A DNA stretch of 32,000 nucleotides from Trichlorobacter lovleyi SZ (GCF_000020385.1 NC_010814.1:3840001-3872000); one strand, 5' to 3'. Counted from the first letter of the stretch, positions 18,092-26,202 are shown. The notes: generated from the letters alone by a model not told the origin. Numbers and translations are program-made.

Positions 18092-18168
18092 CGGGATGTA
18101 GCGCAGTCTGGTAGCGCACCTGCTTCGGGAGCAGGGGGTCGCACGTTCAAATCGTGTCATCCCGACCA
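18092..18168 (+). tRNA. tRNA-Pro (anticodon CGG)
   Basis: CGGGATG/CATCCCG acceptor, D-arm GCGCAGTCTGGTAGCGC, anticodon arm CCTGC-TTCGGGA-GCAGG, T-arm GCACGTTCAAATCGTGT, and encoded A-CCA. Confidence 0.95.
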
Positions 18169-21159: not shown

Positions 21160-21450
21160 CTACACAAGCACCCATGACCGTTCTACTATCTGTCTAAACT
21201 CAGCGCTGGTTGTCGCCCAATCCACAACATCCACCCGGAACGGCAGGTTTGATTCGGCAAAGGCATCTTTTAAGTCGGCCAATTGGCGAAAGTCCAGCGG
21301 AACATCTCCCATAACCACCAGATCAAGGTCTGAAAATGGTTTGGCTGTACCGTTAACACGGGAACCAAAGACGCGGACGGTGCGTTCGGGGATCTGTAGC
21401 TGGAGGATCTGACGAACCTCGGCCAGTTGATCTGGTGTCAGGTCAAGCAT
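21160..21450 (-). CDS. minimal nucleotidyltransferase (MNT), HEPN/MNT module partner
   Basis: 96-aa ORF with the GSR-x9-12-DLDL nucleotidyltransferase signature (VFGSRVNGTAKPFSDLDLVV). 8-nt overlap with the HEPN gene. Confidence 0.85.
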   Translation of the reverse strand: MLDLTPDQLAEVRQILQLQIPERTVRVFGSRVNGTAKPFSDLDLVVMGDVPLDFRQLADLKDAFAESNLPFRVDVVDWATTSAEFRQIVERSWVLV

Positions 21451-21844
21451 GCCGGGCTTTAAGACGGGTCAGCAGCTCTGCAGCATCCATTGCAAATGAC
21501 GGAAGTACGCCAAAGACCTCACGAGCCTTATCCTGGTCATAGGTATGGGAGGTTATGTTGCGTTTGTCGCGGTAATCAAACCAGCGCTGCGGATCTGCGA
21601 TCAGTCCCCGCTCTGCCCCAACCCGGATCAACTCTTTAAACGGCAGGTGGTCCAGCTCTTCACTGGATGGAAGTTCCTGTTCCAATTGACGTTTCAGCAT
21701 CCTGTAGGCCAACTCATAGGTATATTCAAAACGCTGGATACAGGCATCGCGGATGTCTTCATCATCCGGCACGGTGCGGCTGCGCTCCAGTACCCGCTGC
21801 AGCGAGGCAAGTGCCTTTTCATAAGAACTAAAATCAAGGTGCAT
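21443..21844 (-). CDS. HEPN-domain protein (HI0074-type nucleotidyltransferase substrate-binding protein)
   Basis: 133-aa helical ORF with the R-x4-H-x-Y HEPN motif (RNITSHTY). Confidence 0.85.
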   Translation of the reverse strand: MHLDFSSYEKALASLQRVLERSRTVPDDEDIRDACIQRFEYTYELAYRMLKRQLEQELPSSEELDHLPFKELIRVGAERGLIADPQRWFDYRDKRNITSHTYDQDKAREVFGVLPSFAMDAAELLTRLKARHA

Positions 21845-23410: not shown

Positions 23411-24625
23411 TTAAAAACGAGGGCCCATGGGTGAACCACTGCTGCCAGCGGCCTTTTTCTTTGAATTATCACTCTGTTCAATTACCACCTGATCACCTTC
23501 CTTCAGGCTGCCCTCAACAAGCTCGACAAAGCTGGAATCACCAAGGCCGGTGGTAACCGTTACCGCTACCGGCTGGCCATCCTTCAACAGATAGACCTTC
23601 TGCTGTGCTCCACCAGGCTTCCCTTTGCCGCTCCCTGCCGGTCTTTGGCCCGTTTTGGCCGCCTTCTTATCCGCGTCTGACTTGGGGCGGAAGCGCAGTG
23701 CTGCAGCGGGCAGCTTCAGGACACCGTCACGGCGGCCGGTCTCAATCGAGACATTGGCGGTCATGCCGGGCTTAAGATGCAGGTCTTTGTTATCCACCTG
23801 CACCACCACAATGTAGGTGACCACATTCTGGACGGTAATCGGGGCAGAGCGGACCTGGGTAACCCGCCCCTTGAAGCTGCGGTCAGGGTAGGCGTCAACC
23901 GTAAAGGTAACGGCTTGGTCCAGGCGGGTACGGCTGATATCAGCCTCATCCACGCTGGTTTCAATCTGCATCTTGGTCAGATCCCGGGCAATGGAGAACA
24001 GGGTCGGTGTCTGAAACGAGGCAGCCACGGTCTGGCCCACATCAATACTGCGTGAAATAACAATGCCATCCACCGGAGAACGGATTACCGAGTTTTTCAG
24101 ATTGGTCTCAGCCTGCATCAGGGTGCCGCGGTACTGGGTTACTCCGGCCTCAGCCGATTTGATCCCTGCCAGGGCTGAATCATAGGCAGTCTGGGAGGCA
24201 TCAAAATCGCTCTGGGCCACAATCCCCTGACTGATCAGCTGCCTGTTCCGCTCAAGGGTCCGTTTTGCATCGGCCAGGGTGACCTTTGCCTTCTGCAGGT
24301 TGGCCTGGGCATTCAGAAAATTGCCCCTGGCCTGCTCAACCTGGGCCAGAAAGAGGGCCGGATCAATCTCGGCAATCACCTGTCCCTGTTTCACCCTTGA
24401 ATTGTAGTCAACCAGCAGTTTTTGAATGGTACCGGAGACCTGGGAGCCGACCTGCACCGTGGTGACCGGATTCACGGTACCGGTGGCTGATATGGTGGCA
24501 ACAACGCTCCCTTTTTCAAGCGGGACCGTCTTGTAGCTAACCTTGGGGGCACGTCCGAAAAAGAACCAGACTCCAGCAGCAATGGTAATAATCAATATGG
24601 CGACGATGATGATATATTTTTTCAT
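23411..24625 (-). CDS. MacA/HlyD-type periplasmic adaptor (membrane fusion protein)
   Basis: 404-aa ORF. N-terminal TM anchor, lipoyl/barrel segments flanking a coiled-coil hairpin (QARGNFLNAQANLQKAKVTL ...). Followed 16 nt later by gpmI rather than by transporter genes. Confidence 0.88.
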   Translation of the reverse strand: MKKYIIIVAILIITIAAGVWFFFGRAPKVSYKTVPLEKGSVVATISATGTVNPVTTVQVGSQVSGTIQKLLVDYNSRVKQGQVIAEIDPALFLAQVEQARGNFLNAQANLQKAKVTLADAKRTLERNRQLISQGIVAQSDFDASQTAYDSALAGIKSAEAGVTQYRGTLMQAETNLKNSVIRSPVDGIVISRSIDVGQTVAASFQTPTLFSIARDLTKMQIETSVDEADISRTRLDQAVTFTVDAYPDRSFKGRVTQVRSAPITVQNVVTYIVVVQVDNKDLHLKPGMTANVSIETGRRDGVLKLPAAALRFRPKSDADKKAAKTGQRPAGSGKGKPGGAQQKVYLLKDGQPVAVTVTTGLGDSSFVELVEGSLKEGDQVVIEQSDNSKKKAAGSSGSPMGPRF

Positions 24626-24644
24626 GATTCAGCAGATTACGCAC

Positions 24645-24673
24645 AAAAAAACCCCGTGTCAACCGACACGGGG
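24645..24673 (-). terminator. strong intrinsic terminator inside the leader of the MacA-like gene
   Basis: CCCCGUGUC-GGUU-GACACGGGG followed by U7, ending 19 nt before ATG 24625. Confidence 0.8.
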
Positions 24674-24809
24674 TTCGTTGTTGTCTGCCCGCCGACAGGT
24701 TATCGGCAGGCTAGCTTCGGCACCCTTCCTTGCAGTGGGATACCGGACGGATTCTAAAGTGTGCAGTCCACATGACAGGATTCTCCTTTCGGGCGGAGTT
24801 AACTGATGT
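24645..24809 (-). ncRNA. about 165-nt structured leader, candidate riboswitch/attenuator or stand-alone sRNA (class unassigned)
   Basis: Bounded by a near-consensus promoter and the terminator. Contains CUCC..GGAG, UGUG..CACA and GCCUGCC-11 nt-GGCGGGC hairpins and a duplicated AGAAUCC(U)GUC motif. No plausible ORF. Confidence 0.4.
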
Positions 24810-24815
24810 ACAAAA

Positions 24816-24844
24816 ATAATAATAACCGCTACTGCAAAAGTCAA
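24816..24844 (-). promoter_or_regulatory. sigma70 promoter of the leader / MacA-like transcription unit
   Basis: TTGACT (24844-24839), 17-nt spacer, TATTAT (24821-24816). Confidence 0.6.
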
Positions 24845-24879
24845 TCACCCAGACAGAATTTAATTTAATTGGGTGATTG
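24842..24879 (-). terminator. hairpin immediately 3' of the tRNA-like gene (weak terminator or processing signal)
   Basis: CAAUCACCC - 20-nt AU-rich loop - GGGUGAUUG followed by ACUUUUG. The 5' arm starts inside the CCA end. Confidence 0.35.
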
Positions 24880-24979
24880 GCAGGGGTAGCAGGATTCGAA
24901 CCTGTACACTTGACGATTAAAATCGCCCGCTCCGGCAATCTGGTGTTACCAGTCCATCGGCCCTTTAGCCGCTACCCAC
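24878..24979 (-). tRNA. non-canonical tRNA-like gene (Sec-like / allo-tRNA-like, or decayed pseudo-tRNA); anticodon not assignable
   Basis: 3' end ACAGG-UUCGAAU-CCUGC-UACCCCU-G-CCA has a perfect T-loop, G73 and encoded CCA. The 5' strand GUGGGUAGC pairs with it to give 12 stacked bp, readable as 8/4 or 9/3. D-arm CGGCU-AAAG-GGCCG has a 4-nt loop. About 50 nt between the D-arm and T-arm fold into two hairpins but not into a standard anticodon arm. Confidence 0.4.
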
Positions 24980-25099
24980 GAAATGCCTGCACATATTTAA
25001 TTCATTCATTTTATCAATTTTATGCGCTGTGTCTGAGCCAGATGCCGAATCGCCTGCTCACCGGCAACCCCTTCAGTTCTATCCTCGTACGGCTTTTGC

Positions 25100-25161: not shown

Positions 25162-26202
25162 ATGTCCTTCCGTACCATAGAATGGCGCGACGACGCCGTG
25201 ATCATGATTGACCAGACCCGCCTGCCGATGGAAGAGGTCTACCAGCGCTACACTGATTTTAATGCCGTGGCAGAGGCGATCAGGGGGATGGTGGTGCGAG
25301 GCGCACCTGCCATTGGCGTGGCTGCTGCCATGGGGGTTGCTCTGGGGGCACGGGAGATCATTGCCGACACCCAGGAATCGTTCTTCCGGCAGCTGGAAAA
25401 TGTCTGCGACGTGATGGCACGCACCCGGCCCACGGCAGTCAACCTGTTCTGGGCGATTGAGCGGATGAAACAGAAGGCACTGTCTCTCAAAGGCAACCCG
25501 CTGGAAACGATCCGGACCGGACTGAAGGAAGAGGCAATCCGGATTGAGGCAGAAGACCTGGCCATCTGCAAAAACATCGGCAGACACGGCGCAGACCTGA
25601 TCCCGGAGGGGGCAACCATCCTGACCCACTGTAATGCCGGCGGCCTGGCAACCGCAGGCTACGGCACCGCCCTGGGGGTAATCCGGGCTGCCCATGAGGC
25701 AGGCAAAAGGATTCAGGTCTTTTCCGATGAGACCCGCCCCTGGCTGCAGGGGGCCCGCCTGACCACCTGGGAGCTGATGAAGGACAGCATCCCGGTGACC
25801 CTGATCTCGGACAACATGGCCGGTTTTTTCATGTCGCGGGGGGAGATCACCTGCTGCGTGGTTGGCGCGGACCGGATTGCCGCCAACGGCGATACAGCCA
25901 ACAAGATCGGCACCTTCAGCGTGGCGGTACTGGCCAGAGAACATGGCATCCCCTTCTATGTGGCGGCGCCGGTCTCCACCCTTGACCTGTCCCTGGCAGA
26001 CGGCTCCAGGATCCCGATTGAAGAGCGCCCCAGCACTGAAGTCACCCATATCCGCGGTCTGCCGATTGCGCCGGAGGGGGTCAAGGTACGCAACCCTTCC
26101 TTTGACGTAACACCGGCAAAGTACATTACCGCCATCATCACCGAGTACGGCGTGGCCCGGGGTAACTATACACAGGAGCTGGCAGCCCTGGCTGCGGTCT
26201 GA
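25162..26202 (+). CDS. mtnA: S-methyl-5-thioribose-1-phosphate isomerase
   Basis: 346 aa from [40 protein letters not shown] and [18 protein letters not shown] are eIF-2B/MtnA family motifs. The ORF-track start at 24877 is antisense to the tRNA-like gene. Confidence 0.93.

Follow-up and report, generated by a model that had tools for sequence, protein, structure and literature searches.

Adjacent tRNA genes give rise to tRNA pseudogenes and to hybrid tRNA genes by deletion or by unequal recombination. A literature search for described hybrid tRNA pseudogenes yielded none. Four features define allo-tRNAs: the branch is 8/4 or 9/3, the D-stem is long and ends in a tetraloop, and both the anticodon stem and the V-arm are extended (Mukai et al. 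2017, PMC5389517). They were discovered as strong matches to the tRNA-Sec model, they include irregular five-stem structures, and inactive, mutated copies are found near toxin-antitoxin genes (PMC5389517). Bacterial tRNA-Sec (selC, RF01852) is distinguished by its 8/5 geometry, its D-stem of 6 bp and its UCA anticodon.

The window analysed here is a stretch of 32,000 nucleotides from Trichlorobacter lovleyi SZ. It contains a tRNA-like element on the minus strand at 24979-24878 (GUGGGUAGCGGCUAAAGGGCCGAUGGACUGGUAACACCAGAUUGCCGGAGCGGGCGAUUUUAAUCGUCAAGUGUACAGGUUCGAAUCCUGCUACCCCUGCCA), which the initial annotation read as a functional allo-tRNA or Sec-like tRNA. Resemblance to allo-tRNAs, on paper, lies in a drawable 12-bp acceptor/T stack (8/4 or 9/3), in G73, in a length of ~100 nt and in a tetraloop hairpin that follows the acceptor. 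Unlike allo-tRNAs, the element does not match the tRNA-Sec model, lacks both a proper anticodon arm and a true V-arm, and shows no conservation of its stems. G73, an apparent acceptor of more than 7 bp and the 4-nt loop of the first hairpin also recall tRNA-Sec, but the UCA anticodon, the 8/5 geometry and the model match are all missing. The earlier statement that this is not a canonical selC holds, as neither a UCA loop nor a tRNA-Sec match is found. A connection to selB and to a UGA-containing open reading frame had also been drawn and is unsupported; selB (300-2210) lies 23 kb from the element and is unrelated to the locus.

With tRNA pseudogenes and hybrids the element shares positional homology to intact genes, a junction between two similar T-arm regions, a lost covariance score, divergence at a neutral rate and a decayed promoter. 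It departs from the general case in that its parents differ in specificity (Lys and Gln) and in that the tRNA-Gln 3' strand has a chance pairing partner in an old leader, which mimics a long acceptor stem. The element is very probably a non-functional chimeric tRNA pseudogene, created when a deletion fused a tRNA-Lys gene to a tRNA-Gln gene. A decaying pseudo-tRNA had been named at the outset as the alternative to a functional RNA. That alternative was correct, and the element is collinear with an intact tRNA pair at the orthologous site; only its chimeric nature had gone unseen.

Locus and drawable structures

The element lies inside a divergent intergenic region of 536 nt, flanked on one side by a gene for an HlyD-type efflux adaptor (23411-24625, minus strand), followed by iPGM, and on the other by mtnA of the IF-2B family (25162-26202, plus strand). 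Protein matches in the window point to Trichlorobacter/Geobacter, and the gene neighbouring the element is present in 69 indexed blocks. The element is no artefact of assembly, as five independent contigs of the same species carry it in identical form. Neither integrase genes nor genes of mobile elements were found near it.

The element begins GUGGGUAGC and ends ACAGG-UUCGAAU-CCUGC-UACCCCU-G-CCA. The T-loop (UUCGAAU), the G discriminator at position 73 and the encoded CCA are all read on the minus strand, as had been reported. Positions 1-9 can be drawn pairing with 98-90, where 1:98 is a G.U pair and 2:97 a U.C mismatch, and the T-stem can be drawn with 4 bp and an A.C mismatch at its base. 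Three hairpins are also drawable: CGGCU-AAAG-GGCCG, CUGG-UAACA-CCAG and GGCGAUU-UU-AAUCGUC. In the 8/4 cloverleaf first proposed, 26 of the 27 pairs are standard in the window sequence. The 12-bp stack of 5' and 3' strands can be drawn, with the U.C at 2:97. Its meaning as an acceptor branch is doubtful, with a pairing partner that arises at chance level, a 5' strand that is unconserved leader and a 4-bp T-stem that is a by-product of the deletion junction.

Detectors and folding calculations give no tRNA at this position. ARAGORN at default settings reports no tRNA or tmRNA at the element, and its sole call in the window is a tRNA-Pro at 18092-18168. At relaxed thresholds it returns only poor, conflicting folds, namely an Arg(gcg), a 'Stop(tta)' with an intron, and calls on the reverse strand. 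With tRNA-Sec and tRNA both among its models, Rfam release 15 has no match at gathering scores and none at E ≤ 10 on 24780-25080, so that the proposed check by covariance models found neither of these two above noise. The minimum-free-energy fold is a rod rather than a cloverleaf (z-score -1.64); forcing the 8/4 cloverleaf costs 5 kcal/mol relative to the rod. When the 181 nt upstream are shuffled, 25% of the shuffles yield a stretch able to pair with the 3' strand GCUACCCCU at 8 or more of 9 positions; the actual 181 nt contain two such sites. The complementarity of the 5' strand to the 3' strand is at chance level. By sequence comparison, the only part of the element clearly beyond chance is its 3' 27 nt, because these are identical to a genuine tRNA-Gln 3' end.

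Further copies were sought by pattern and by similarity. A pattern combining the hairpin with the T-loop had no match in viral contigs, and among 185,579 species, with one genome for each, it gave a single unrelated chance match in Streptomyces. Two junction patterns had no match in JGI metagenomes, and BLAST of the lineage-specific block defined below found nothing in phage and plasmid collections. When viral contigs were scanned with the 3' 22-mer of the element, only ordinary tRNA-Pro and tRNA-Gln genes were recovered; this 22-nt end is generally common to genes of these two kinds. The pattern scans show no recent spread, with exact patterns detecting near-identical copies only and distant relatives outside their reach.

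A different origin was tried and rejected. Two short repeats with an equal spacing of 143 nt had raised the idea that the element arose by tandem duplication of the downstream HlyD leader and then diverged. Local alignment of the two scores 32, compared with a mean of 26.8 and a maximum of 45 for shuffles, and the in-register identity of 37/102 is unexceptional.

The orthologous site in relatives

Orthologous loci were retrieved via HlyD homologues, and the site is found in three states. Six loci have no tRNA: L006, L007, L052 and L053 (92% HlyD identity), L008 (84%) and L011 (T. ammonificans, 74%). Their intergenic regions measure 316-361 nt (328 nt in L052 and L053), and ~40 unrelated bases stand where a block at 24860-25089 of the window would be. 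Pairwise and multiple alignments with relatives mark out this minus-strand block, bounded by the shared flanks ...CAAGCAAAAGCCG and TTCTGTCTGGGTGATTGAC, as the whole lineage-specific segment. It comprises a promoter remnant, a leader, the fused tRNAs and one arm of a downstream hairpin.

In the second state, represented by the Trichlorobacter relatives L054, L055 and L057 (HlyD 90-91% identical), intact genes for tRNA-Lys(CUU) and tRNA-Gln(CUG) occupy the same site between the same flanks, from mtnA to the HlyD leader (ARAGORN ctt and ctg). They are separated by 15-26 nt, and the promoter of the intact operon is TTGACA-16-TAATAT, which scores 10/12 (L055). Although flanks, leaders and spacers are scrambled among these three relatives, the tRNAs themselves differ at 0-1 positions. 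The third state is the fused one and is found in the window species and in L051 (95%), where the same block is shorter by ~87 nt. A fusion predicted from L054 by joining Lys 1-51 to Gln 48-74, with 87 nt deleted, matches the window in 67 of 81 alignment columns and L051 in 68 of 79. The comparison with relatives that had been recommended as a check found drift or absence at the locus and no compensatory change.

Each part of the element can be assigned by alignment. Positions 1-24 (GUGGGUAGCGGCUAAAGGGCCGAU; 24956-24979) are the former operon leader, 5' of tRNA-Lys, by positional homology to the leaders of L054, L055 and L057. Both the supposed acceptor 5' strand and the supposed D-arm CGGCU-AAAG-GGCCG fall within this portion, and both come from a leader that is not tRNA at all. 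The matching place in L054 reads GTGAGTGGTGGCAGAAACAGAT. The leaders of the three relatives with intact genes are non-conserved and mutually unrelated, and 4 of 23 leader positions differ between the window and L051. L054 and the window leader show three differences (A>G, G>A and U>C), all of which improve pairing with the 3' strand. Because the leaders of L055 and L057 are unrelated, these differences do not fix the ancestral state.

Positions 25-75 (24905-24955) are a remnant of tRNA-Lys(CUU) 1-51, as judged by alignment to the intact tRNA-Lys that is identical in L054, L055 and L057. The remnant runs through the acceptor 5' strand (GGACUGG), a badly damaged D-arm, the anticodon arm and the variable loop. 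Its 51 nt carry ~13 changes; among them are G10>A, G19>C and A21>G, and the D region has gained two insertions. The hairpin CUGG-UAACA-CCAG (element 28-40) had been assigned to the anticodon-arm position, but it is what is left of the tRNA-Lys acceptor 5' strand and D-arm, intact GGACUAGUAGCUCAG having become GGACUGGUAACACCAG. Its loop has 5 nt, rather than 7 nt on an extended stem, and it loses one pair in L051. The former anticodon arm is GGCGA-UUUUAA-UCGUC (24912-24927; element 53-68), the second hairpin of the earlier reading. The long variable region described there, which in allo-tRNAs is the part that SerRS recognises, is by homology the tRNA-Lys anticodon arm. In the window its loop has changed from CUCUUAA (7 nt) to UUUUAA (6 nt). 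L051 still has CUCUUAA.

Positions 76-102 (24878-24904) align to tRNA-Gln(CUG) 48-74, which supplies the T-arm, the acceptor 3' strand UACCCCU, G73 and CCA. All 27 nucleotides are identical to the intact tRNA-Gln of L054, L055 and L057. The simplest junction would join ...GUCGUA of tRNA-Lys to CAGGUUCGAAU... of tRNA-Gln, a reconstruction that is ambiguous by a few nucleotides. The first T-stem pair is destroyed by the deletion junction, and because an A stands opposite a C at the base of the stem, only 4 T-stem pairs are left and the stack looks 8/4 instead of 7/5. Relative to its parents, tRNA-Lys(CUU) and tRNA-Gln(CUG), the element is missing 87 nt (the T-arm and 3' end of tRNA-Lys, the spacer and tRNA-Gln 1-47), and its D-arm and anticodon loop are damaged. 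As these alignments read, its parts come from a leader, a tRNA-Lys and a tRNA-Gln, and the element is not a member of the allo-tRNA family.

Some further observations concern the parental genes and the sequence upstream of the old promoter. In the intact tRNA-Gln(CTG) genes (L054:2185-2258, L055:2178-2251 and L057:2147-2220), ARAGORN draws a U1.U72 mismatch atop the acceptor stem, and the window relic inherits the U72-G73-CCA end. At ~25048-25075 on the minus strand, both the window and L051 read GUUGCCGGUGAGCAGGCGAUUC. This resembles AUUGCCGGAGCGGGCGAUUU within the element (24921-24945, minus strand; repeat D4) and contains GAGCAGGCGA, which is identical to positions 22-31 of intact tRNA-Lys, whereas L054 has CUGCAGGUGAACAGUUGAUUC there. 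The likeness may reflect a short conversion or template-switch tract.

Between iPGM and an FAA-hydrolase gene, as an insertion, sits a putative toxin-antitoxin pair on the minus strand, consisting of a HEPN-like NTase_sub_bind protein (21443-21844) and an MNT-type nucleotidyltransferase (21160-21450). This pair occurs only in the window species and L051 and not in L006, L008, L011, L052, L054, L055 or L057. In L056, an 89% relative, the mtnA-hlyD intergenic region (L056:880-2320) holds a HigB-like toxin, an HTH antitoxin and small open reading frames, without tRNA sequence. On account of this HigB/HTH cargo, the mtnA-hlyD intergenic region seems to be a hot spot for the gain and loss of small cargo.

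Decay of the fused genes and the downstream leader

The two fused copies have diverged from each other in 12 of 103 alignment columns (11.7%). Fourfold-degenerate sites differ between the same genomes by 14.4% in hlyD, 14.7% in iPGM and 7.2% in mtnA, while the figure for the adjoining 220 nt of HlyD promoter and leader is 0.5%. On this comparison, divergence of the element is close to the synonymous-site rate and purifying selection on it has been lost. Five paired positions of the 27-pair 8/4 model are changed in L051, with no compensatory change between the two lineages compared. Pairs 11:20, 31:37 and 77:89 are broken, and one more is kept as a wobble. Some of the D-arm damage (G19>C, A21>G, U12>A and an inserted A) is common to the window and L051, and decay therefore started in their common ancestor.

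Change is distributed unevenly along the element. The Gln-derived 27 nt is unchanged in the window while the Lys-derived 51 nt is heavily changed, and the junction plus the Gln-derived part differ from L051 at 2 of 31 positions. For the unchanged part, possible explanations are chance, residual constraint and conversion by another tRNA-Gln gene copy. This unchanged part, the three leader differences that improve pairing and the hairpin after CCA kept in both fused copies count against the pseudogene reading. The L051 copy retains some resemblance to a tRNA. The Rfam tRNA model gives it 26.3 bits (E = 0.0012), compared with a gathering score of 29, and aligns it in the canonical 7/5 register from the tRNA-Lys 5' end, not from the 5' end proposed for the window element. 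ARAGORN calls it a 79-nt tRNA-Lys(ctt) with a mismatched acceptor stem. From these two results it follows that the residual tRNA-likeness lies in the register of a Lys/Gln hybrid.

The promoter of the former tRNA operon has decayed as well. By homology to TTGACA-16-TAATAT of L055, its remnant is TTGATA at 25017-25012, a 16-nt spacer and TATGTG at 24995-24990, on the minus strand. The initial annotation had listed exactly these hexamers and spacer in an AT-rich upstream region; they are present, but as a decayed copy of a real promoter that a promoter scan of the window does not call. Both the window and L051 have lost 3 nt of the -10 hexamer, and the -35 hexamer is TTGATA in the window and ATGATA in L051, versus TTGACA in intact operons. 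This decay is indirect evidence that the element yields no mature, charged transcript. Among six same-species copies of the 536-nt intergenic region, the sole polymorphism is at position 24991 (ATATG[T/C]GCAGG, minus-strand reading), which falls in this decayed -10 region.

The alignments show that a lineage ancestor carried a promoter, a short leader, tRNA-Lys(CUU), a 15-26-nt spacer and tRNA-Gln(CUG) between mtnA and the HlyD leader. A deletion of ~87 nt, with breakpoints placed by the reconstructed junction within the 5' strands of both T-stems, then joined tRNA-Lys 1-51 to tRNA-Gln 48-74. Comparison of the two fused copies shows that the ancestor they share lost the D-arm and the elbow nucleotides G10, G19 and A21. 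The window lineage then lost one anticodon-loop nucleotide, L051 gained a U.U mismatch in its T-stem, and the -10 and -35 hexamers of the tRNA operon promoter eroded. The apparent 9-bp 'acceptor stem' and the 'D-arm' are fortuitous pairings of the leader, with the tRNA-Gln 3' strand and with itself, respectively. A transcript still made from the element would probably fold poorly and be unable to decode.

Directly after CCA is a perfect 10-bp hairpin (CAAUCACCCA / UGGGUGAUUG) with an 18-nt loop, followed by ACUUUUG (24842-24879, minus strand; inverted repeat I3 with arms at 24842-24851 and 24870-24879). A hairpin at the 3' end of the gene had been noted earlier and is confirmed. Its stems are identical in L051, which has two loop changes, and it is missing in L054, L055 and L057. 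It is inferred to have ended transcription of the old operon, and the -35 hexamer of the HlyD-leader promoter is overlapped by its 3' arm.

The element does adjoin a structured leader of the gene that was called MacA-like, here the HlyD-type adaptor gene. This conserved leader (24626-24845, minus strand) has its own promoter, TTGACT-17-TATTAT (24844-24816), followed by a GGAG Shine-Dalgarno sequence, a 20-codon open reading frame (ATG at 24773 to TAG at 24711, MWTAHFRIRPVSHCKEGCRS) and two hairpins. An intrinsic terminator at 24676-24649 with U7 lies 24 nt upstream of the ATG of the gene. The leader peptide MWTAHFRIRPVSHCKEGCRS is identical in nine relatives, with synonymous changes only, and reads MWTQRFRIRPVSHCKEGCRIRPVG in T. 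ammonificans. Rfam finds no family in this leader; the best score, 25 bits at E = 0.14, is to PyrR and covers the terminator only. The arrangement looks like leader-peptide attenuation of a kind without a known match.

Alternative readings and meaning of the relic

A functional RNA can be drawn from this sequence in two registers. As an allo-tRNA or tRNA-Sec-like RNA of 8/4 or 9/3 form, with G73 and a long variable arm, it would receive its amino acid from SerRS and act in recoding or regulation. The nearly complete set of standard pairs in the 8/4 cloverleaf, G73, CCA and the perfect T-loop fit such an RNA, and irregular allo-tRNAs and inactive copies near toxin-antitoxin genes are known (PMC5389517), with a HEPN/MNT-type pair 3 kb off. 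It is nonetheless highly improbable, and the claim is refuted by the lack of any covariance model score above noise and by relatives that drift at the locus or lack it. Allo-tRNAs match the tRNA-Sec model strongly, yet the element has no tRNA-Sec or tRNA match even at E ≤ 10; no 7-nt anticodon loop sits on a long stem; a tRNA-Lys anticodon arm accounts for the 'V-arm', and an unconserved leader for the 5' strand and 'D-arm'. The L051 copy breaks three pairs without compensation and changes at a synonymous rate, and specific patterns gave no copy in the genomes of 185,579 species, JGI metagenomes or viral contigs. The other register is 7/5, in which a tRNA-Lys body with a CUU/UUU anticodon would be joined to a tRNA-Gln acceptor 3' strand with G73 to make a working hybrid, either used in decoding or tolerated as a mischarging tRNA. 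The ARAGORN call and the Rfam score of the L051 copy, both in the 7/5 register, speak for such a tRNA. The window copy is in worse condition: its anticodon loop has 6 nt, G19 is lost, the D-stem is mismatched at two of four pairs (10:25 and 12:23), the acceptor has U.U, A.C and C.C mismatches, and no detector reports it. Even L051 is below the Rfam gathering score and has a T-stem U.U, and the promoter is decayed in both copies, which leaves a working hybrid very unlikely.

Other readings accept the tRNA ancestry and give the relic, or a piece of it, a different role. The whole relic, or its tRNA-Gln 3' part with the 10-bp hairpin, could have been exapted as a terminator or insulator before the HlyD-leader promoter, as a recombination target or as a small regulatory RNA. 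The Gln-derived 27 nt is the same as in the intact gene, and the perfect hairpin, whose 3' arm overlaps the -35 of the downstream promoter, is kept in both the window and L051. However, conservation of 27-38 nt over just two lineages is weak evidence, the junction and Gln-derived part still differ from L051 at those 2 of 31 positions, L006, L052, L008 and L011 keep the same promoter and leader without any tRNA remnant, and no integrase or mobile-element genes are nearby. Exaptation of this kind is very improbable. It is likewise very improbable that, once the deletion had occurred, the relic was exapted into a structured RNA of a new sort, its 8/4-type tRNA-like stack formed between the leader and the tRNA-Gln 3' strand; if true, this would be a snapshot of the birth of an allo-tRNA-like or regulatory tRNA-like RNA from a tandem tRNA fusion. 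The identity of the 3' 27 nt with a tRNA-Gln 3' end would also be expected of an attachment-site scar, a fragment duplicated during integration and excision of a tRNA-targeting mobile element, and the intergenic region has taken up other cargo in L056 (the HigB/HTH pair). Against such a scar, the whole block, including the part upstream of the fragment, is collinear with the intact tRNA-Lys/tRNA-Gln operon, and the window has neither an integrase gene nor a second copy of the repeat. The chance that the element is such a scar is exceedingly remote.

The preferred reading, a deletion fusion of tRNA-Lys and tRNA-Gln that has since decayed, carries a caution. A relic that retains a perfect T-arm, G73 and CCA, together with an upstream strand that is complementary by chance, can pass by eye as an exotic 8/4 or 9/3 tRNA. 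The orthologous loci of close relatives settled its identity at once. Judged from those loci, the element is best regarded as an ordinary tRNA-gene fusion relic and not as a new kind of tRNA, and it says nothing about how Trichlorobacter lovleyi SZ decodes selenocysteine or about variation in its genetic code. It provides a clean, datable small case of how a bacterial tRNA gene set shrinks, by a deletion between neighbours followed by decay of the promoter, D-arm and anticodon loop at a neutral rate.
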